This document shows positions 11,620 through 59,881 of a DNA stretch of 64,000 nt, in pieces. Below the pieces are notes generated by a model. That model did no database searches, was not told the origin of the DNA, and saw only the letters and a program-made list of their open reading frames with translations. The DNA is from Candidatus Malihini olakiniferum (GTDB lineage Bacteria; Pseudomonadota; Gammaproteobacteria; Enterobacterales; Enterobacteriaceae). The translations under genes were made by a program, and so were the position numbers. Location of the stretch: positions 3,766 to 67,765 of the forward strand of contig JBHKFL010000006.1 of NCBI GenBank assembly GCA_042263625.1, given 5' to 3'. The stretch's first letter is position 1; every line of letters begins with the position of its first letter.

Positions 11620-12300
11620 AAGAAGAGCGTTCAGCGGGCCTCTTAGTCAACCAATTACGATTGAGAGTGAATGTGATATTTTTTATTTATTTGAACAATG
11701 ATAGGAGACGGTCTCATCAACTCCGCCCTGATTAGCCATTTACAAAAAAAAGACGAAAGTGTTTCCGCTAGAGCGGAACGCCGCCGAATGCGGATGATAG
11801 GAAACTCAGCTATTCTGCATTACCATGCAGAATAGCTGAGTCTATTTTTTGGTGCATACTCTGCGTAAGCAGAACCTTATAGCCTAATTTGTTGTATTCT
11901 AAAAATGTCTAGAGAGGCTCTTATATTGTTGATTTGTATTACACATATCTTTAATAGATGGGCTACTCTTCTTTCCTAAGAAGCTTTTATTGCTGAGTTG
12001 CGAAAGCAACTATCACTGGACGAATACCATCGCTTCCCGCTCACCCTATATTATGGAAGCGGTTAACGACATCTCCTACTGCGTCGTCCTAACCAGTAAA
12101 CAATTAATTATATCTGCCGCCACTCTAGACATGGCGGGGATAGAGAGCTTCCGCATTTTTCTAAAAACAGTAGAGTAGGTCTACAAAAGCCGAAAACAGC
12201 ATTTCGGGTGCAGTACCTACAGTCAATGTTTTATGCTGTTGCATGTTAATACCGTGTGGCGCTGGTGGTACTATATACCTTATATGTCGCATCTTTTTCT
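11620..12300 (+). pseudogene. dgt: dGTP triphosphohydrolase remnant
   Basis: LINSALISHLQKK-KVFPLERNAA and YIMEAVNDISYCV fragments. Confidence 0.85.
11804..11841. repeat. perfect inverted repeat, 17-bp arms, 4-nt loop
   Basis: ACTCAGCTATTCTGCAT-tacc-ATGCAGAATAGCTGAGT inside the dgt remnant. Confidence 0.95.
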
Positions 12301-42782: not shown

Positions 42783-42806
42783 TTCGTAGCACAGAGAGCT
42801 CTAATC

Positions 42807-43010
42807 ATGGCATATGATATATGGCATATGGCATATAGCGAAAAGTTATTGATCTTTAAAATCTAAGCCATGTGGGCTTGGTTGATAACGCCGATTCTTC
42901 GAATCTAAGACACACGGTTTAAAATCTACGGTTGTGTCTCCGCCATTGCTGCCAGTTAGCTGATCACTGAATAGAAGAAAGAAAAGTCTCCGGAAGAAGC
43001 CGAATCGATA
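42807..43010 (+). pseudogene. iscU: Fe-S scaffold IscU remnant
   Basis: MAYSEK and RFKIYGCVSAIAAS*LITE* fragments; internal deletions; triplicated ATGGCAT. Confidence 0.9.
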
Positions 43011-43024
43011 TTGATAGTAAGAGA

Positions 43025-43144
43025 CTGATTTATCTCTATGGCATAGAGATGGATTTCGTCAAAGACGGTTTGAACGAAGGATTCAAGTTGAATCATCCCA
43101 ACGTGACCGGCGAATGTGGCTGTAGCGTAAGCTTTAGGGTCTGA
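43025..43144 (+). pseudogene. iscA: IscA, C-terminal remnant
   Basis: [38 protein letters not shown]; no 5' half. Confidence 0.9.
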
Positions 43145-43237
43145 TTCTTTTTTTCCTTATTAACAGGGGAATGATTGTTACGCCTGCTAGCGCAGGGACT
43201 GATCTCCCCAGTTAGCGCTAGCATATTCTAGCGCACT

Positions 43238-43285
43238 GTGGATTATGTTACGTTATTCTATCTGCAGGTTCACCCTGATAAAAAG
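43238..43285 (+). pseudogene. hscB: HscB remnant
   Basis: VDYVTLF joined to QVHPD (HscB MDYFTLF...HPD). Confidence 0.65.
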
Positions 43286-43653
43286 GATAAGACAGACTGT
43301 CTGACGGGTATTTTTTTGGCATGATCAGCGATGTTCAGAAATATTCTAAGAACAGCACCTGTTAGGTGTAACCTAAGCAGGTATAGTTTACACGCAAATC
43401 CCAGCACTGAATCATCCAAAGATAATAAATTACGCTGCGAGCATGTGATCACAGGGTGATTGCCATAAACTGCATACTTATGCAATAGTGTCTCTACAGG
43501 CGTAATGACGTGACAAAAAGATACTATTTTTAGTAAAGGTTATATGCCCTGATAGGCAAGTGTAGGCAAGTGAATGTGTTGCCACCCTATTATATGCAAT
43601 ATAATAATTTTTTAAGCCTGGCGTTATTAGCTTGTAATATATTGAGGTCTAAT

Positions 43654-44085: not shown

Positions 44086-44269
44086 ATCCGTTGCAGCGAT
44101 TTTCTTCTGTCAAACGTAAAAATGCAAAAGGGGTAGCGTCGCTGTTTTAAACATTAAATAAAGCAGCGCCCAAGATGGGCACACGCTCGCTGTTTTTTTT
44201 AGTGTTTCTTTGTCAAAGTCACCTTCTTCATTTTGTAATAAAAATGAGGTGAAAGCCATTCCGTACTGA

Positions 44270-44990
44270 ATAGGTGATGAAGACTATGACGGACAAAAAC
44301 AAGGTTTTACGTCAGTAATTATAGCAGATCGCTAAGATCTATGCATAGGAGGTGTTGGCTAAATAGAGCTCCTCGAAGCGGTACTATACAGATTGCGATT
44401 CTGTTCGTTGTATGGCCAACCTGTGGAAACAGTGGACATTCCGAAAGGGAATCGAACCACGCGCTGCTTTTCCTTTCAGCTTGGTTATGCCCTTGAATGC
44501 GAGTTTTACTCCATCGCATAGCGATGCGATTTAACCATAATCTTTCTGTTTCAGAAATTATTGATCAGGTATGGCGTTCCGTAACATTATCAGTTTCTCA
44601 ACAGTCACTGGTCAGAACCTGAACAATTTTTTGCTATGGAGATCATGCTAGATGATCTTCTGCGTTGGTTTTTCTAAGCACCAAGTGAGGGGCTCTCTCT
44701 ACTTTCGGAGAAGGTACCCGCGCTGGATAACTTTGGTGAGGTGATATGATTGAGGTTGCACTGTGGAAATCGCTGCACGCGCTAACAGCTAAGATCAATA
44801 ATAAAATAATAAAATTCTGCTGATCAACAAAAATGGCAGCGCAATGAATAATTGTGATGTGTTTCTTTTTAGCGCTACAATCGATCCGATTAGATCTTTA
44901 TCACCATAGCCTTCCGGCTAGCTTATCATCACTATGCGCCGCTATTGTGGCGCATAGTGATGATAAGCGTAACTGTCATGGCGATAGGCC
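44270..44990 (+). pseudogene. rlmN: dual-specificity RNA methyltransferase RlmN remnant
   Basis: MTDKNKVLR, VETVDIP, GYALECEFYS, FNHNLSVSEIIDQVWR and AMEIMLDD fragments. Confidence 0.92.
44921..44968. repeat. perfect inverted repeat, 20-bp arms, 8-nt loop
   Basis: GCTTATCATCACTATGCGCC-gctattgt-GGCGCATAGTGATGATAAGC. Confidence 0.96.
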
Positions 44991-45059
44991 TGAGGCAAAG
45001 TTTTCTACACTCTAAAAACAACAAGAAGTTCCTAGCTAAGGAATACTGAAGCTACTCTA

Positions 45060-45696
45060 GAGAATACCACCTCAGCCACTCCTAGCGAATATCTTCGTAA
45101 GGCGAGCGAGCATAGGGGATTGATGCAGCAAACTGTCGCTGAACGTTTATACCTTAAAGTTACATAGTACGTGAGATCGAAGAGGGCAGCCTCTCGCTAG
45201 ATTTGGCTCCCACCGTTTTGCGTTGGTATATCCGTTTTTATGCAAAAATGGTACATTTTCTCGAAATTGCACTGCTGCCTATGTTGGATAAACATCGTGG
45301 TGCTAAAATTTGCCAACGTGACATCAATGCAAGGTATGGCTGGTTGATGTCCTTTACCTGTCTGGCTGGTAGTCGTATTAGGTCTTATCGGAGCCTGGTG
45401 GTTGCAGAATGACCAGATTTAGCAGCAGGAGCAGGAGATCAGCATAATGAATGATCGATCAGTCTCCGGCCACTAGCCACTAATGCACCAGAAGGGGTTC
45501 TTATAGGCAAACAGCTTTTCAGATCGAAAATAGCAGATTGCAGACCTTCGATCTAAAGACGCAGCAGGCAAAACTATAGAGCGGCGTGCTGCGAAGCGGT
45601 AGAAGTGCCTTAAACCTGAGCTGCCATGCATCCTATCGATTGAGCCTGCTTTTAAGAAGCAACAAAGTTGCTCGTCTGACGCTTGCAGCGCAGTAG
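45060..45696 (+). pseudogene. rodZ: cytoskeleton protein RodZ remnant
   Basis: QQTVAERLYLKV, LRWYIRFYAKMV, GWLMSFT and KVARLTLAAQ* fragments, frameshifted. Confidence 0.9.
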
Positions 45697-45736
45697 TTTC
45701 CGATATTAGTGATGCTGTAAACGTGGAGAAGAATTA

Positions 45737-46992: not shown

Positions 46993-48276
46993 GTGGCAAA
47001 AAATCTCCAAGCCATTCGTGGCATGAATGATTATCTTCCTGCCGAAACGGCCTTATGGCAGCATATTGAAGATAGCCTGAAAAAATCACTCCGAAGTTAC
47101 GGTTACAGTGAGATCCGTCTGCCAATCGTTGAAAAAACCACGTTGTTTAAACGGGCAATTGGCGAAGTGACTGATGTATTCGAAAAAGAGATGTATACCT
47201 TTGAAGACCGTAACGGCGATAGCCTCTCACTGCGTCCAGAAGGAACAGCAGGGTGCGTTCGCGCCGGTATTGAACATGGCATTCTCTATAATCAGGAACA
47301 GCGGATGTGGTATATGGGGCCGATGTTTCGTCACGCACGCCCACAAAAAGGGCGCTATCGTCAATTCCATCAACTGGGTTGTGAAGTCTTTGGGTTGCAA
47401 GGGCCAGATATTGATGCCGAGTTAATTCTGCTCACTGCGCGCTGTTGGCGTGAGCTCGGAATTGCCGAACATGTTTCGCTAGAACTGAACTCCATCGGTT
47501 CGCTGGAAGCGAGAGCTCGATATCGTGAAGCATTGATCGCTTTCCTTGAAAAACACAAATATCAACTAGATGAAGATTGCTTGCGTCGCATGTACACTAA
47601 CCCGCTGCGCGTACTGGACTCCAAAAATGCACAAGTACAGACGTTGCTAAACGATGCACCGGTGCTACCGGATTATCTGGATGATGAATCTCGCCAACAT
47701 TTTGAACAATTAGGTGAACTTTTAACGCAGTCAGGTATACCATTTACTGTGAATCCGCGTTTGGTGCGCGGACTAGATTATTACAACCGCACCGTGTTCG
47801 AGTGGATCACTACCAGTCTTGGGTCGCAGGGTACCGTGTGTGCTGGCGGTCGCTATGACGGTATGGTGGAGCACCTCGAAGGGCATGCAACAACGCCAGC
47901 AGTAGGTTTTGCTATGGGGATAGATCGTTTGGTGCTGTTGGTGCAGTCCATTAATCCGGATTTAACAGCATTACCCGCCGTGGATGTGTATCTAATTTCC
48001 TCCGGCGTCGTTACGCAGTCAGCGGCAATGCAATTGGCTGAAACACTCCGTGATGCGTTACCTGCACTGAAATTGATGACCAACTACGGAGGCGGCAATT
48101 TTAAGAAACAGTTTGCTCGCGCAGATAAATGGAGAGCGCGTATTGCTCTGGTTCTGGGTGAAAACGAAGTGGCTTCCGGTCAGGTGATTGTAAAAAATCT
48201 GAGCAGTGGCGAGCAGGATTCCTTATCGCAGGCGGACATTGCCGCGCGACTGACAACGTTACTCGATTTAGATTAA
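46993..48276 (+). CDS. hisS: histidine--tRNA ligase
   Basis: GMNDYLP, RGLDYY and GGRYD motifs. Confidence 0.97.
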
Positions 48277-48288
48277 CAAGAAGACAGC

Positions 48289-49635
48289 GTGGAAGGCTAT
48301 ACCACTGAGAATGAGCAAGTTGGTGCGTTGCGCCGATTCTTTTCCTGCGACAAATGGGTCGTAGGCGAATCCGCTACATGCATTGCAGGCGTTGTTGCAC
48401 AGGCGTTGTTGCATATGAAATTAAATCACCTGATAAGGGCTAAGAGAAACATCATACCCTTGGGTAAAACACTTATAGTTTTGATGCTTTCTCTGACTTT
48501 TTTGAGCGGATGTTCGTTATTCAGAGGCGAAGAAGATGTAGTGACTATGTCACCGCTTCACAAGGTAGAGAACCAGTTTATACCGATAAAAGTCTGGAGC
48601 AGCTCTGTGGGGAGTGGCCTCGACGGGCACTATTCCAACTTGCGTCCAGCCTGGATAGGCGGAAGCATCTTTGCAGCCGATCGTAAAGGATTAGTAAAAG
48701 CGATGGCTTTGGCGAACGGAAAAGAGCTGTGGAGTGCCGATCTGTCCAAAAAACGTGGACTTCTCTCTTCGCGTGAATCCGCGCTACTTTCCGGCGGCGT
48801 GACGGTCTCTGGCGATCATCTATATGTCGGTAGCGAGCGAGCAGAAGTTTTTAGGCTCAATGCGGCAGACGGTACGATCGAATGGAAAGCCACAGCATCG
48901 GGTGAAGTGTTATCACGCCCTGTAGTGAGTGATGGCGCGGTGCTGGTTCACACCAGCAATGGCATGTTGCAAGCGCTAAACGAAAGTGACGGAGCCATCA
49001 AATGGACAGTAAACCTGGCTATCCCGACGCTTTCGCTGCGCGGTGAATCTGCGCCAGCAACGGCGTTTGGTGCAGCCATAGTAGGCGGAGATAACGGTCG
49101 TGTGAACGCTGTGCTGATTAACCAAGGGCAACTGATTTGGCAACAGCGCATCGCTCAAGCGAGCGGTTCGACCGAAATCGATCATCTGAATGATGTAGAC
49201 ACTACGCCAGTTGTAGTCGGTAAACTAGTGTATGCACTGGGTTATAACGGCAATATGACGGCGCTGGATCTACGATCTGGTCAGATCGTATGGAAACGCG
49301 AACTGGGCAGCGTACAAGATTTCGTGATTAATGGTGATGGCATTTTTGTCGTGGATCAAAATGATCGCGTGGTAGCACTCAGTACTAAAAGTGGCGTTAA
49401 TTTATGGCGGCAAAGCAATCTGCTGCACCGTAATCTTACAGGCCCGGCACTGTATAATGGTGATCTGGTGGTGGGAGATTCTGAAGGTTACCTACATTGG
49501 ATTAATACTACAGATGGTCGTTTCGTTGCACAGTATAAAGTGGATAGTTCCGGCTTTCTAAGCGCCCCGATGTTGGCTAGTGACAAGCTGCTGATTCAGG
49601 CGAAGAACGGTGAAGTCTACGCGTTTACCCGCTAA
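48289..49635 (+). CDS. bamB: BamB lipoprotein fused in-frame to a YfgM remnant
   Basis: YfgM N-terminus (YTTENEQV-ALRRFF) and C-terminus (LL-MKLN-L) precede lipobox LSGC and PQQ-like repeats. Confidence 0.92.
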   Translation: MEGYTTENEQVGALRRFFSCDKWVVGESATCIAGVVAQALLHMKLNHLIRAKRNIIPLGKTLIVLMLSLTFLSGCSLFRGEEDVVTMSPLHKVENQFIPIKVWSSSVGSGLDGHYSNLRPAWIGGSIFAADRKGLVKAMALANGKELWSADLSKKRGLLSSRESALLSGGVTVSGDHLYVGSERAEVFRLNAADGTIEWKATASGEVLSRPVVSDGAVLVHTSNGMLQALNESDGAIKWTVNLAIPTLSLRGESAPATAFGAAIVGGDNGRVNAVLINQGQLIWQQRIAQASGSTEIDHLNDVDTTPVVVGKLVYALGYNGNMTALDLRSGQIVWKRELGSVQDFVINGDGIFVVDQNDRVVALSTKSGVNLWRQSNLLHRNLTGPALYNGDLVVGDSEGYLHWINTTDGRFVAQYKVDSSGFLSAPMLASDKLLIQAKNGEVYAFTR

Positions 49636-51232: not shown

Positions 51233-51299
51233 TCAGAATGGAGCAGAATGGAGGATTGTCACCACATGTTATGGTTGCATTGGATGGTAATGACCCTCT

Positions 51300-52016
51300 T
51301 CTAACTTTACCATGCACACCTGTTGATCTTGCTGATGGGGGCGTAGTTAGATGACGCTTTGTGCGATGCAGTTTGGGTACTATTACCAGGTTTTATTGCT
51401 CCAATAACGAAAAGGGTGTACTCTTCAGCAAGAAAGCGCTGCTGACCAGCATTGCGACCAACCATCTTCTTATATTTCGTGTCCTATTCCAAGCCTAGAT
51501 AGGCGATGCCTGATTTGCATGTTTAAGTTGGGATTGCAGTATCCTGGCGAAAATCTAAATTTCAAGATCATGCTGCGCACTAGTAACGTTGCAGCACTCT
51601 CCACAGTGGCTAAACTAGTGGTCATACCAGGGGAGTAAAGGCTACGCTTTGGGCTTACTTCATAACTGACGGCGCTGAAGACGGGAATATCCTTAAATCT
51701 CCAGAGATCTTCCAGCGAACCGCCACCACGGCACAGCAATCACTCTATCACACTCCTGCTGTTGGTTGGCAAGCTGGATGGGGCGAACAATGTGCACTGC
51801 ACTGGGATATCTTCACCGCGGCGCGGGCTGCATACTCTACTGCCAGTAGTTAGTAATCCCCCTCCGGATTCGTTCGTATAGGGTATAGAAGAACAATCAC
51901 AAGTCGCTTGCTGGTACGAAACATAGTGCATCGTACCTCAGTTTCTAGAAACAATCGCCTGACCGTTTGATTGAAGCGTCTGACACTAAAAATAGTGGAC
52001 GATGGCGCTTGGAACA
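51300..52016 (-). pseudogene. xseA: exonuclease VII large subunit remnant
   Basis: RFNQTVR and RGGGSLEDLW-F-IPVFSAV fragments with large deletions; divergent from guaB. Confidence 0.9.
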
Positions 52017-52079
52017 TAATGTTAGCCAAGCTGGCTTTATGAGAAAAATCAAATATTAAAACAGAGGGTTAATTACCAG

Positions 52080-52152
52080 ATTATACAGAGCCTAATCGCT
52101 TGCCTCCAGCTTTCATAAAAAGCTGGAGGCAAGCGATTAGGCTCTGTATAAT
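52080..52152. repeat. perfect inverted repeat, 34-bp arms, 5-nt loop
   Basis: ATTATACAGAGCCTAATCGCTTGCCTCCAGCTTT-cataa-AAAGCTGGAGGCAAGCGATTAGGCTCTGTATAAT. Confidence 0.97.
52124..52152 (+). promoter_or_regulatory. guaB promoter with overlapping PurR-like box
   Basis: TGGAGG-17 bp-TATAAT aligns with the enterobacterial guaB promoter (TAGATG-17-TATAAT). Confidence 0.75.
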
Positions 52153-52195
52153 GCAACGGCAATATTTTACACATCCCAATATGAGATATTGCCCA

Positions 52196-53683
52196 ATGCT
52201 ACGTATTGCCAAAGAAGCACTGACGTTTGATGACGTACTCCTGATTCCCGCTCACTCTACGGTTCTACCGAATACTGCTGACCTCAGTACTCGTCTCACG
52301 AAGAACATTCGTCTGAATATTCCTATGCTCTCTGCCGCCATGGATACCGTCACTGAATCCAGCTTGGCTATCGCATTGGCACAGGAAGGTGGTTTGGGTT
52401 TTATTCATAAAAACATGTCGATTGCGCGTCAGGCAGAAGAAGTCAGTCGTGTAAAACGCTATGAAAGCGGCGTTGTAGTTTATCCACAAACGGTGACCCC
52501 GAGCACCACATTGCGTCAAGTAAAAGAATTGACCGAGCGTAACGGTTTTGCCGGTTACCCGGTGGTGACGGACGATAACGAGTTGGCAGGTATTATAACC
52601 GGTCGTGATGTGCGTTTTGTGACTGATTTGGAATGCCAAGTCAGCGTAGTGATGACGCCGAAAGAACGCCTCGTAACGGTGCCTGAAGGAGAAGCGCGGG
52701 AGGTCGTGCTACAAAAAATGCACGAGAAACGTATTGAAAAAGCGCTGGTTGTAGATGATAGATTCCATCTACTTGGCCTTATTACCGTAAAAGATTTCGA
52801 GAAAGCAGAACGAAAACCTAACGCCTGTAAAGACGAGTATGGCCGCTTGCGCGTTGGTGCTGCTGTCGGCGCAGGGGGTGCGGGTAACGAAGAACGTGAA
52901 GAACGTGTTGATGCGTTAGTTTCTGCCTGTGTTGACGTGTTGCTAATTGACTCCTCACATGGCCACTCCGAAAGGGTATTACAGTGCATTCGTGAAACTC
53001 ATGAAAAATATCCTGATCTGCAGATTATCGGTGGTAACGTTGCGACTGGAGCTGGTGCCAAGGCGCTGGCTGAAGCGGGTGTGAGCGCAGTAAAAGTAGG
53101 CATTGGCCCTGGGTCTATTTGTACTACCCGTATCGTTACCGGTGTAGGTGTACCGCAGATTACCGCAATTTACGACGCTGTAGAAGCGCTTGAAGGTACG
53201 GGCATTCCTGTGATTGCTGACGGCGGAATCCGTTTTTCCGGTGATATTGCCAAAGCTATTGCAGCGGGAGCATCCTGTGTGATGGTGGGATCTATGCTAG
53301 CTGGAACTGAAGAATCTCCTGGTGAGATCGAGCTTTATCAGGGACGTGCATTTAAATCTTACCGTGGGATGGGATCTCCGGGTGCTATGTCCAAAGGATC
53401 TTCTGATCGATACTTCCAAAGCGACAATGCTGCTGACAAACTAGTACCGGAAGGAATTGAAGGGTGTGTAGCTTATAAAGGCCGCCTAAAAGAGATCGTG
53501 CATCAGCAGATGGGGGGCTTGCGTTCTTCGATGGGGCTAACAGGCTGCGGTACGATCGACGCATTGCGCAAGGCTGAGTTTATACGCATCAGCGGTGCTG
53601 GTATTCAGGAAGGACATGTACATGATGTCAGTATCACCAAGGAATCCCCGAACTATCGCATGGGTTTATTTGAAGCTGGCTAA
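52196..53683 (+). CDS. guaB: IMP dehydrogenase
   Basis: [17 protein letters not shown] pair, [11 protein letters not shown] catalytic loop. Confidence 0.97.
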
Positions 53684-53783: not shown

Positions 53784-55361
53784 ATGACAGAAAATATTCA
53801 TCAACACCGCATACTCATTCTAGATTTTGGATCACAGTATATAGAACTGGCTGCACGTCGTGTGCGTGAACTTGGCGTTTATTGTGAGCTCTGGGCATGG
53901 AACGTGACCGAAGTACAGATTCGCGAATTCAATCCAAACGGAATCATCCTTTCTGGCGGCCCAGAAAGCACAACTGAGCACAATAGTCCGCGTGCACCGG
54001 AATACGTATTCCAAGCAGGTATACCTGTGCTGGGTGTGTGTTATGGCATGCAGACTATGGCCATGCAACTTGGCGGGCATGTTGAAGGCTCTACTGAGCG
54101 TGAATTTGGTTATGCGCAGGTTAAAATTAAAATCGAAAGTGCGCTACTGCGCGATATCCAGGACGCATTGAGTGACAGCGGCGTTCCATTGCTGGATGTA
54201 TGGATGAGCCACGGTGATAAAGTGATGGCACTGCCTTCTAATTTCGTTACCGTTGCCAGCACCGATACCTGTCCGTTTGCCATTATAGCTAACGAAGAAA
54301 AACGCTTCTATGGTGTACAGTTCCATCCAGAAGTGACCCATACCCGTCAGGGGAAACGCATACTGGAGCGCTTTGTACGTGATATCTGCCAGTGTGATGC
54401 ATTGTGGACTCCAGCTAAAATTATTGATGATACGGTGGTGCGACTGCGTGAACAGGTTGGTAATGATCGCGTGATCCTTGGCCTTTCTGGTGGCATAGAT
54501 TCCTCTGTAACGGCGATGCTGCTACATCGTGCTATTGGCGATCGTCTAATCTGCGTATGTGTAGATAATGGCTTGCTACGTTTACACGAAACAGACCAAG
54601 TTTTACAAATGTTTAGTGACCACTTTGGCCTGAATATTATACACGTTGCAGCGGAAGATCGTTTTTTATCTGAATTAGCCGGTGAAAACGATCCAGAAGC
54701 TAAGCGCAAAATTATTGGTCGCGCGTTCGTCGAAGTCTTCGATGAAGAAGCGAGCAAACAGACTGAAGTAAAATGGCTAGCGCAGGGTACTATTTACCCT
54801 GACGTAATTGAATCTGCTGTGTCTAAAACCGGTAAATCGCACGTTATTAAATCCCATCACAATGTAGGTGGCTTGCCGAAAGAGATGAAGCTGGGTCTAG
54901 TTGAACCGTTGAAAGAGTTGTTTAAAGACGAAGTGCGTAAGATTGGGCTTGAACTAGGCTTGCCGTACAACATGTTATACCGTCATCCGTTCCCGGGTCC
55001 TGGTCTTGGCGTGCGTGTACTGGGCGAAGTGAAGAAAGAGTATTGCGATCTACTACGTCGTGCCGACGCTATTTTCATCGAAGAGCTGCACAAAGCTAAC
55101 CTGTACCACAAAGTGAGCCAGGCGTTTACCGTATTCCTGCCGGTGCGTTCCGTTGGTGTGATGGGAGATCGTCGTAAATATGACTGGGTAGTTTCTCTGC
55201 GCGCAATTGCAAGCATCGACTTTATGACTGCGGACTGGGCACACCTGCCTTATGACTTTCTTGGCCGAGTTTCCAACCGTATTATCAATGAAGTTGATGG
55301 TATTTCTCGCGTGCTTTACGACGTTTCGGGCAAACCGCCCGCAACGATCGAGTGGGAATGA
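53784..55361 (+). CDS. guaA: GMP synthase (glutamine-hydrolysing)
   Basis: GVCYG, QFHPE, SGGIDS and KPPATIEWE motifs. Confidence 0.98.
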
Positions 55362-57999: not shown

Positions 58000-59190
58000 T
58001 TATAGCACCAGCCCTGCGATTGATGCCGAGAGAACGCTAACCAGCGTGGAGCCGTAAACTAACTTGAGACCGAAGCGGGAAATCACGTTACCCTGATTTT
58101 CGTTCAAACCCTTGATAGCACCGGAAATGATACCAATGGATGAAAAGTTGGCGAAAGACACCAGAAACACGGAAAGAATCCCTATGCTAGGTGCAGAAAG
58201 TTGGCTTGCAACTTTCTGCAGTTCCAACATAGCGACGAATTCATTGGATACCAGTTTGGTGGCCATAATACTGCCGACCTGTAACGCTTCGTTAGCAGGA
58301 ATTCCCATGATCCAGGCAAAGGGGAAGAATACATATCCCAGCATTTCCTGGAAACTAATACCGAACACAGCGCTGAAAATAGCGTTAACCATTGTAATTA
58401 GTGAGATAAATCCGATTAGCATAGCGGCAACAATACAAGCCACTTTGAAGCCTGCCAGGATATATTCTCCCAGCATTTCAAAGAAACTCTGGTTTTCATG
58501 TAGATCTCGTAGTTGCAGCTCAGGCTCGGCGTCTACTTTATACGGGTTGATCAATGACAATACGATAAAGGTGCTGAACATATTCAGAATCAGAGCCACC
58601 ACTACATATTTAGAATCCAGCATGGTCATATAGGCACCTACGATGGACATCGATACGGTCGACATGGCTGTTGCTGCCATGGTATACATGCGTTTTTCTG
58701 ACATCTTTCCAAGGATCTCTTTATAGGCAATGAAGTTTTCTGATTGTCCGAGAATCAACGAACTGACAGCATTAAACGATTCTAGCTTACCCATACCGTT
58801 CACTTTGGACAGCGTAGTACCGATGGCAAGAATAACGATGGGCAGTACTTTTATGTGCTGGAGGATCCCTATCAGTGCCGAAATAAACACGATAGGGCAA
58901 AGCACTTTGAAGAAGAATGAAATAAGGTTCTTCTCGTGGTTAACCATATCGCCAAACACAAAATCAGTCCCTTTTCCGGCAAAACCCAGCAATTTATCAA
59001 AGACGGCGGAAAACCCCTTTATAAAGCCCAACCCTACGTTAGAATATAGGAAGAACCAGGCAAGCAGAATTTCAATCACTAACAGTTGAATAATAAATCG
59101 GATACGAATGCTTTTACGATCGCGGCAGGCAAGCAACGCCAAACCAGGCACGACAAGCAATGCCAACGCAAATTGCGCAATATGAGTCAT
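58000..59190 (-). CDS. nupC: concentrative nucleoside transporter (NupC family)
   Basis: [21 protein letters not shown] and SFANFSS motifs; GGAG SD before ATG 59190. Confidence 0.9.
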
Positions 59191-59881
59191 GAGGGCTCCG
59201 AATATAGTAGGCGTATTAACGTTTGCCATATTACTCTAGGTGATGAAAAGCTAAAAGTGCGATAACATAAGAAAAAGTATACTTATATCTTGGGATATAG
59301 CGCTAAGTTGAATAGTTTAGCGCAGTGAGCAGCAATGTAGGAATGGTAAGCAAACATAACTAATTTAGAAAGAAAAGAGTTGCCATTAGGGACATTTAAA
59401 GCGAGATGCAGAGAAAAATGCAAGTTATCGATTGTGATGATCCAGTTTCTTTTTTTTGAAAAAAAGAAAAATATATTTTACGAGCTGCGTGTATATCGCA
59501 ATCGTTAATCTAACGGTGTGGTATCCTGCTGACCGATTGTCTACGGCAGATCATGATATTGCTGTAGGACAGAATGCTGGAGCATTTTTGCTCCTTGTCT
59601 TCGCCGTACTCTTTGTACTTTTAACGGCCATTTACTCATATTGCAAATGATCTCAATATTGCCAGAGGTACCAATATTATATAAACAATAAAAATAGCAG
59701 CGCGTTTATAACGCTATTTGTTTCTGTTAAATTATAGCCAATAATGCCATTACAAATAAAGATACCCGTCATACTGCAAGTTGCATAGAAGTTTTCTTCA
59801 CTTATTCATACGAATCAATTACCTGATTATATGCACATCAGGGTTCATTTACTTGAAGCCTTGCTAGGTATTACGAAAAAA

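Follow-up and report, generated by a model that had tools for sequence, protein, structure and literature searches.

How did a long, perfect inverted repeat come to stand directly upstream of guaB in this genome, and what has it done to the promoter out of which it is built? A repeat search of the window (the whole stretch of DNA that was analysed, 64 kb in length) found an inverted repeat of 73 bp at 52080-52152, with arms that are complementary at 34 of 34 positions around a 5-nt loop. It reads ATTATACAGAGCCTAATCGCTTGCCTCCAGCTTT-CATAA-AAAGCTGGAGGCAAGCGATTAGGCTCTGTATAAT and is the longest inverted repeat in the window. When up to three mismatches are allowed, the arm matches only its own two sites within the 64 kb, and no match at all was obtained in 100 dinucleotide-preserving shuffles. 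Folded as single-stranded DNA, the hairpin has a predicted energy of -43.7 kcal/mol (z = -14.7 against shuffles), and its perfect 34-bp arms and AT-rich centre (TTTCATAAAAA) give it the structure of a cruciform-forming palindrome. An earlier sequence-only reading had described exact 34-bp arms with a 5-nt loop, and all of its coordinates proved correct; it had also placed a mirrored TATAAT about 60 nt from the start of the xseA remnant, a distance that we measure as 63 nt. The features to which we refer below are these.

51233 to 52017, minus strand: pseudogene remnant of xseA (exonuclease VII large subunit), with the conserved start codon at 52017-52015 and many stops.
52038 to 52054, no strand assigned: CRP-box-like sequence TATGAGAAAAATCAAAT, the orthologue of E. 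coli TGTGAGCGAGATCAAAT, assigned by homology only.
52080 to 52113, minus strand: left arm, a derived reverse-complement copy of the guaB core promoter.
52085 to 52080 and 52108 to 52103, minus strand: -10 TATAAT and -35-like TGGAGG of the left arm (the plus strand reads ATTATA at 52080-52085).
52102 to 52112, plus strand: position of the distal UP subsite (about -57 to -47, for a +1 at about 52159), now GCCTCCAGCTT and ancestrally a T-tract.
52114 to 52118, no strand assigned: loop CATAA, by alignment the remnant of the centre of an ancestral T6-7-AT-A5-7 palindrome in the UP element.
52119 to 52152, plus strand: right arm, the native guaB core promoter including the proximal A-tract.
52124 to 52129, about 52127 to 52142, and 52147 to 52152, plus strand: -35-like TGGAGG, PurR-like box and -10 TATAAT of the right arm, assigned by homology to E. 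coli PguaB.
52196 to 53683, plus strand: guaB (IMP dehydrogenase), intact, 495 aa, with its ATG at 52196.
53784 to 55361, plus strand: guaA (GMP synthase), intact, 525 aa, with length and position as in the related loci L082-L088.

The genome resembles that of an insect symbiont and is in decay. Genes in the window run in the order glyA, suhB, iscR, iscS, ndk, remnants of rlmN and rodZ, ispG, hisS, bamB, der, the xseA remnant, guaB, guaA, trhP and a nupC-like gene; open reading frames of at least 150 aa cover only about 62% of its length, and its G+C content is 45.5%. About 785 nt are left of an xseA gene of about 1370 nt that is intact in other loci of the comparison (L084, L085 and L091). 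Malihini, a relative of Symbiopectobacterium, Pectobacterium and Dickeya, was acquired recently as a co-symbiont by Hawaiian psyllids of the genus Pariaconus (PMC12360927). The GuaB protein of the window is 89-91% identical to those of Symbiopectobacterium and 'Candidatus Malihini olakiniferum' (91% for the best match among GTDB species representatives). Synteny is shared with the Malihini contig L087, as are a degraded xseA and the lack of yfgM, which is missing between hisS and bamB in both, at a DNA identity of only about 85-88%. Losses at 44100-45700 and 48276-48460 concern rlmN and rodZ, which are frameshifted and truncated remnants (rlmN is intact in L087), and the missing yfgM; the isc operon appears to stop after iscS (gap at 42783-43570). 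GuaB itself is intact but fast-evolving. It carries an in-frame EER-EER tandem duplication at residues ~232-237 with an extra G nearby, a five-residue C-terminal extension (LFEAG) relative to relatives, and substitutions at positions that are identical in four aligned relatives, among them R to C and G to R within the motif HSEGVLQR. An extra A ahead of the gene (CCCAATG against CCCATG) brings an upstream ATG at 52181 into frame with guaB.

The right arm is the native guaB promoter. We compared the locus with about 90 relatives, comprising E. coli, 80 loci from GTDB species representatives and further Symbiopectobacterium and Malihini contigs, and an orthologue of the right arm, equally far from the ATG of guaB, is present in E. 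coli and in about 88 further loci of Enterobacterales, which bears out the earlier identification of this arm. The conserved promoter stretch reads AAAAAGCTGGAGGCAACCGATTACGCTCTGTATAATGCC, for which the E. coli counterpart is AAAAAGGGGTAGATGCAATCGGTTACGCTCTGTATAATGCC. In E. coli, PguaB comprises a -10 element, a weak -35, PurR and DnaA operators and an UP element from -59 to -38, with a CRP site near -117.5; it is 'strongly enhanced' by the UP element, and a derivative that spans -37 to +36 gave transcripts too low for quantification when FIS was present (PMC2885671). The locus described here resembles that promoter in its TATAAT -10, weak -35, PurR-like and CRP-like boxes, leader, and a DnaA box within the coding region (TTATCCACA, 52480-52488). 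It differs in that the distal UP subsite and the DNA from about -47 to -79 have been replaced by the mirrored promoter, and in that xseA is a pseudogene. The CRP-like box is situated upstream of the palindrome, at a distance from the promoter that has changed by no more than a few nucleotides. In the leader there is an 8-bp inverted repeat (GGCAATAT at 52158-52165 and ATATTGCC at 52186-52193) that is kept in most of about 80 enterobacterial loci (L001-L081); judged from its position, it would pair the predicted 5' end of the guaB mRNA with the region next to the Shine-Dalgarno sequence. We know of no described function for this conserved repeat.

The left arm has a different history. The palindrome was absent from all of the roughly 90 relatives examined, in which no inverted repeat longer than 11 bp was found upstream of guaB, and these include the closest relatives, namely three Ca. 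Malihini olakiniferum assemblies and several Symbiopectobacterium. A metagenome scan for the mirrored guaB -10 region (ATTATACAGRGC-N20-50-GCYCTGTATAAT) gave one match, which lies on a microsatellite-bearing, eukaryote-like contig and is unrelated. It follows that the palindrome is a derived feature, specific to this lineage; the sequence-only reading had named ancestry in free-living relatives as one observation that would overturn its account, and the alignment of related symbionts and other Enterobacterales speaks for the opposite. Both flanks are collinear with Symbiopectobacterium in multiple alignments. Identity to Symbiopectobacterium is 70/91 between the xseA start and the left arm, drops to 16/34 in the left arm, and recovers to 32/34 in the right arm and 39/43 in the leader, so that an arm which matches at fewer than half of its positions lies between flanks that are 77-94% identical (Fisher p = 1.4e-5 for the clustering of mismatches). 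About 34 ancestral nucleotides (ACTACCTTGCCTGAAAGGTTAATCAAGTTTT...) have been exchanged for a 32-nt stretch that repeats the right arm in reverse complement, and the length of the spacer is nearly unchanged. This supports the earlier claim that a template switch overwrote ancestral DNA. A net insertion of 31 nt after GGTTAAT was also considered and was rejected, because the alignment shows GGTTAAT to be the upstream copy and the change to be a near length-neutral replacement.

The same alignments show what was there before. At the centre of symmetry the ancestor had a perfect palindrome of A and T, which was no part of the earlier reading; it is T7-AT-A7 in Symbiopectobacterium, is T6-AT-A5 in Malihini, and forms the A/T-tract of the UP element; the position equivalent to the loop reads TTTTTT(T)ATAAAAA(AA) in relatives. 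When the orthologous regions of eight relatives were folded, this short AT hairpin was the only stable one predicted, and the folding energies of the regions upstream of guaB were no better than those of shuffles. About half of the ancestral positions already match the left arm, partly through the T-run and the AT ends that they have in common, and the outer junction has a 2-nt AT microhomology. Two lineage-specific C-to-G substitutions in the PurR-like box are carried by both arms, and the copy was therefore made after those two changes. The closest relative is about 13% diverged in DNA, and for this reason the exact switch points and the change in the loop (T to C at 52114) are placed only approximately. 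As a separate observation on the same spacer, Symbiopectobacterium sp. GCA_051710525.1 (L083, ~2300-2350) carries a 23-nt tandem duplication (ACAGAGGGTTAATTGATTAATAT twice) between xseA and guaB, and slippage-type rearrangement of this interval has therefore occurred in other symbiont lineages too. One record of the comparison set, L003 (JADMXW010000017.1, labelled Serratia marcescens), has a guaB upstream region that equals those of Symbiopectobacterium L007 and L008 over the 110 nt shown and is unlike those of the other Serratia loci (L013, L015, L016 and L042); it may be mislabelled or contaminated.

Taken together, an orthologous donor arm, an overwritten left arm and a derived palindrome are best read as the result of a template switch, and three marks by which such events are recognised are present: one arm is the exact reverse complement of the other, the donor arm is ancestral and the mismatches are localised in a cluster, and an inverted repeat or microhomology pre-existed at the switch points. 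We consider it likely that the palindrome is the product of a single short-range switch of replication template, which took place after the split from Ca. Malihini and Symbiopectobacterium. Within this account the reverse-complement identity, the ancestral state, the location of the change and the seed palindrome are demonstrated. In the course of such an event a nascent strand would pause at the AT palindrome (T6-7 AT A5-7) of the ancestral UP element and would then either fold back on itself, an intrastrand switch that would involve the lagging nascent strand, or cross over to the opposite template, in which case the switch would be interstrand and the leading nascent strand would make it. 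The strand would copy about 31 nt of the core promoter of guaB in reverse complement before it returned to its original template at the 2-nt AT microhomology, and some 34 ancestral nucleotides would thereby become 32 nt, in the 1-4-3-2 pattern of the four-point model. That pattern is among the two commonest for template switches and yields single perfect inverted repeats (PMC7954356). GC skew is positive over the window as a whole (+0.057), which marks the plus strand as leading and gives a fork direction from xseA to guaB. The data fit an intrastrand and an interstrand switch alike, and it is the switching strand and the origin in vivo that we infer.

That last point has to be weighed against the possibility that the palindrome was formed in vitro, as an assembly, library or amplification artefact in which a strand folded back or an inverted chimera was made, for instance during end repair or multiple displacement amplification. 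Strand-displacing amplification is known to yield inverted chimeras. Exact-protein look-ups of the GuaB, Der and GuaA sequences of the window matched no second assembly, and perfect inverted repeats with arms of at least 17 nt are unusually many in the window, which a systematic artefact could also bring about. The structure of the locus, however, argues the other way. A chimeric junction would invert one flank, whereas at guaB the two flanks keep the order seen in relatives and the change is limited to about 32 nt, so that two precisely placed switches would be required; these considerations make an artefact unlikely. In addition, a palindrome that was already there marks the centre of the switch, as it does in events in vivo, the left arm contains the two substitutions of the lineage itself, and a consensus of many reads would normally not fix a rare chimera. 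We therefore hold an artefact to be improbable.

A template switch of this kind has close counterparts elsewhere. In the quasipalindrome mutations of E. coli, which belong to a classical class of bacterial mutation (the Ripley model, the thyA hotspot, and the lacZ QP5 and QP6 reporters of the Lovett laboratory), one arm is likewise copied onto the other during replication, a pre-existing hairpin acts as the seed and the outcome is a perfect repeat. The laboratory events correct a few bases in repeats that are already near-perfect, whereas at guaB an AT stem of 7-9 bp was brought to 34 bp, with about 27-31 newly templated nucleotides, and in natural evolution. We did consider the guaB event as the correction of a near-perfect repeat and rejected this reading, since the ancestral region is not a significant quasipalindrome and holds only the short AT hairpin. 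As the energies of the ancestral hairpin do not rise above those of shuffles, the event is better described as the extension of a short palindrome. Switches that follow the four-point model (Loytynoja and Goldman 2017, PMC5453318; Walker et al. 2021, PMC7954356) share with it the single reverse-complement copy, the 1-4-3-2 pattern, the perfect repeat and the very stable hairpin. In primates such short-range switches explain mutation clusters, create perfect hairpins and have given rise to miRNAs de novo (PMC5453318, PMC7954356, PMC10710096). Those events were found in primate genomes, while the present one belongs to a bacterial symbiont and duplicated a complete sigma-70 core promoter. A closer parallel in location is yeast GRE2, where template switching was reported in 2026 to expand promoter inverted repeats with an effect on expression (PMC13100816). 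In both cases an inverted repeat inside a promoter was expanded by a template switch; the GRE2 promoter is a Pol II promoter with transcription-factor sites, for which engineered mutants demonstrated the change in expression, while at guaB the copied unit is the region recognised by RNA polymerase and is known from sequence. The expansion of inverted repeats by template switching, promoters included, is thus a phenomenon that has already been described. What sets the guaB case apart is the length of the templated tract, the copying of an entire bacterial core promoter, and the dead ExoVII gene that adjoins it. As a natural instance of a long switch in bacteria (about 31 nt) it is unusually clean, and from relatives one can recover the ancestral state, the palindrome that served as seed, and both junctions.

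Judged by alignment with E. coli, PguaB appears to have kept its -35, -10, PurR-like box and proximal A-tract and to have lost its distal UP subsite. What remains of the UP element is the proximal A-tract CATAAAAA alone, the distal T-tract having become GCCTCCAGCTT in both promoter copies. Since PguaB of E. coli depends strongly on its UP element (PMC2885671), it is plausible that the guaBA promoter has become weaker. An identical predicted core promoter now appears to face the xseA pseudogene, and about 86 bp would separate the two predicted starts: the mirrored copy would start near 52073, 56 nt before the ATG of the xseA remnant, and its transcript would read into the pseudogene and then antisense into der. 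By symmetry the two copies share their -35, their -10 and the DNA upstream of these, and the mirrored one has the discriminator CTGGTAA against GCAACGG. Its -10 is a perfect TATAAT, its -35, TGGAGG, matches the consensus at three of six positions with a spacing of 17 nt, and as an UP element it has the proximal A-tract only. A scan with the sigma-70 consensus called no site on either strand in this region; even the native guaB promoter was passed over, in keeping with the weak -35. The earlier description of identical twin promoters accordingly stands for the letters of the -35 and -10 elements; as a statement about promoters it goes too far, in that the -35 is weak (3/6), no sigma-70 site was called and the distal UP subsite has been lost from both.

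Divergent transcription from sequence symmetry is familiar in bacteria in another form. Warman et al. 2021 are said to have described bidirectional promoters that arise from the symmetry of the -10 element itself, with overlapping -10 elements and starts about 18-23 bp apart. The guaB locus is alike in that symmetry of sequence would underlie divergent transcription, and differs in having two full predicted promoters arranged back to back; the distance between their predicted starts, about 86 bp, places it outside the symmetric -10 class. The palindrome might be a regulatory device maintained by selection, whether as a pair of bidirectional promoters, as a cruciform or supercoiling switch for guaBA, or as a doubled operator with two PurR-like and two DnaA-like boxes. 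Identity between its arms is still complete, guaB and guaA have stayed intact amid many pseudogene neighbours, and in yeast a promoter did change its expression when an inverted repeat within it expanded (PMC13100816). Extrusion of a cruciform is physically plausible with 34-bp arms and such a centre, and it would bury both promoters. An AT-rich palindrome centre, such as the one found here, favours extrusion. Yet the palindrome is confined to one lineage and its mirrored promoter points at a pseudogene, a recent origin explains the perfect identity of the arms equally well, and half of an element on which PguaB of E. coli relies was lost in the event. Selection is, moreover, relaxed all around the locus, with rlmN, rodZ and xseA dead and yfgM missing. 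A selected function is on these grounds distinctly improbable. The palindrome is probably a neutral or slightly deleterious mutational scar that is tolerated under relaxed selection, and not a switch that evolved.

A long perfect hairpin in an intergenic region might also be an inserted mobile or repeated element of the REP or MITE type, a structured RNA or a terminator. Matches to generic miRNA hairpin models of Rfam, all of them sub-threshold, could be taken in the same direction; the only Rfam models matched were eukaryotic miRNA hairpins, and all scores were far below the gathering scores. An inserted element would consist of foreign DNA, however, and the arm is local promoter sequence with no further copies in the 64-kb window. 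The predicted transcription starts lie outside the palindrome, so that no RNA hairpin is expected and the structure would be found in neither transcript. No intrinsic terminator was called in 51900-52300 on either strand, and no T-run follows either arm. This explanation is extremely improbable and effectively refuted.

Other inverted repeats in the window hint that template switching may be unusually active in this lineage. At 44921-44968, between the rlmN and rodZ remnants, there is a perfect palindrome with 20-nt arms and an 8-nt loop. Compared with Malihini L087 (~2760-2840), the flanks CGGCTAGC and GATGATAAGC are conserved and the interior has been replaced, such that about 51 intervening nucleotides in Malihini, with only a small CGCC/GGCG hairpin, stand against 36 nt that complete the palindrome here; of the right arm, just the outermost 10 nt count as ancestral in this comparison. 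To judge from this alignment, it looks like a second extension by template switch. At 58192-58220, within the nupC-like coding sequence (58000-59229, minus strand), a perfect 12-nt inverted repeat (TGCAGAAAGTTG-GCTTG-CAACTTTCTGCA) differs from L087 at 9 of 29 positions, against about 10% in its flanks, and is possibly a quasipalindrome-perfecting event within a coding region. Both of these sites were compared with Malihini alone, and the changes may have occurred in either lineage. In the 16 kb of the window that could be compared, all three perfect inverted repeats with arms of at least 12 nt (34, 20 and 12) coincide with clusters of mismatches. Perfect inverted repeats with arms of at least 17 nt number 3 in the 64 kb of the window against 3 in 657 kb of the guaB loci of relatives, an excess of about tenfold (Poisson p ~0.003), in a test that is weak because the comparison set is mostly coding and represents largely the same orthologous region. 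A further repeat, at 11804-11841, has perfect 17-nt arms and a 4-nt loop followed by CTATTTTTTGG, and lies in a gap of 1.3 kb between mtnN (minus strand) and degP, an interval that in the gene order of E. coli is presumably occupied by dgt; it could be a terminator or a derived palindrome in a lost gene.

The dead xseA gene next to the guaB palindrome encodes the large subunit of ExoVII. In E. coli, ExoVII is one of two exonucleases, with ExoI, that abort quasipalindrome template switching (bioRxiv 10.1101/2020.10.27.357855), and two further papers also describe these events as suppressed by ExoI and ExoVII (PMC7202029, PMC6357072). It is conceivable, though in our view rather unlikely, that the guaB palindrome is one product of a lineage-wide regime in which early symbionts that lose ExoVII, and perhaps other hairpin or 3'-end nucleases, accumulate long palindromes extended by template switching. 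If this were so, some of these extensions would duplicate promoters in inverted orientation and give rise to new divergent transcription. The dead xseA and the role of ExoVII provide a testable link between the loss of DNA-repair genes and the mutation spectra of genomes that are approaching host restriction. The guaB locus itself indicates that inverted copying of a complete core promoter in a single step is a possible route to new divergent promoters, and that the same type of event can damage an existing upstream activating element. Even if the palindrome is no more than a neutral scar, it matters in practice, as the mark of a site where assembly, cloning and amplification are difficult. 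Near the first letter of the window, positions 32-57 (ATAGCTAGCTAGCTATGAG) hold a short palindromic tetranucleotide run, (AGCT)3 or (TAGC)3, with stops in several frames; it lies directly upstream of a gene for an ABC-transporter ATPase and is probably due to chance.
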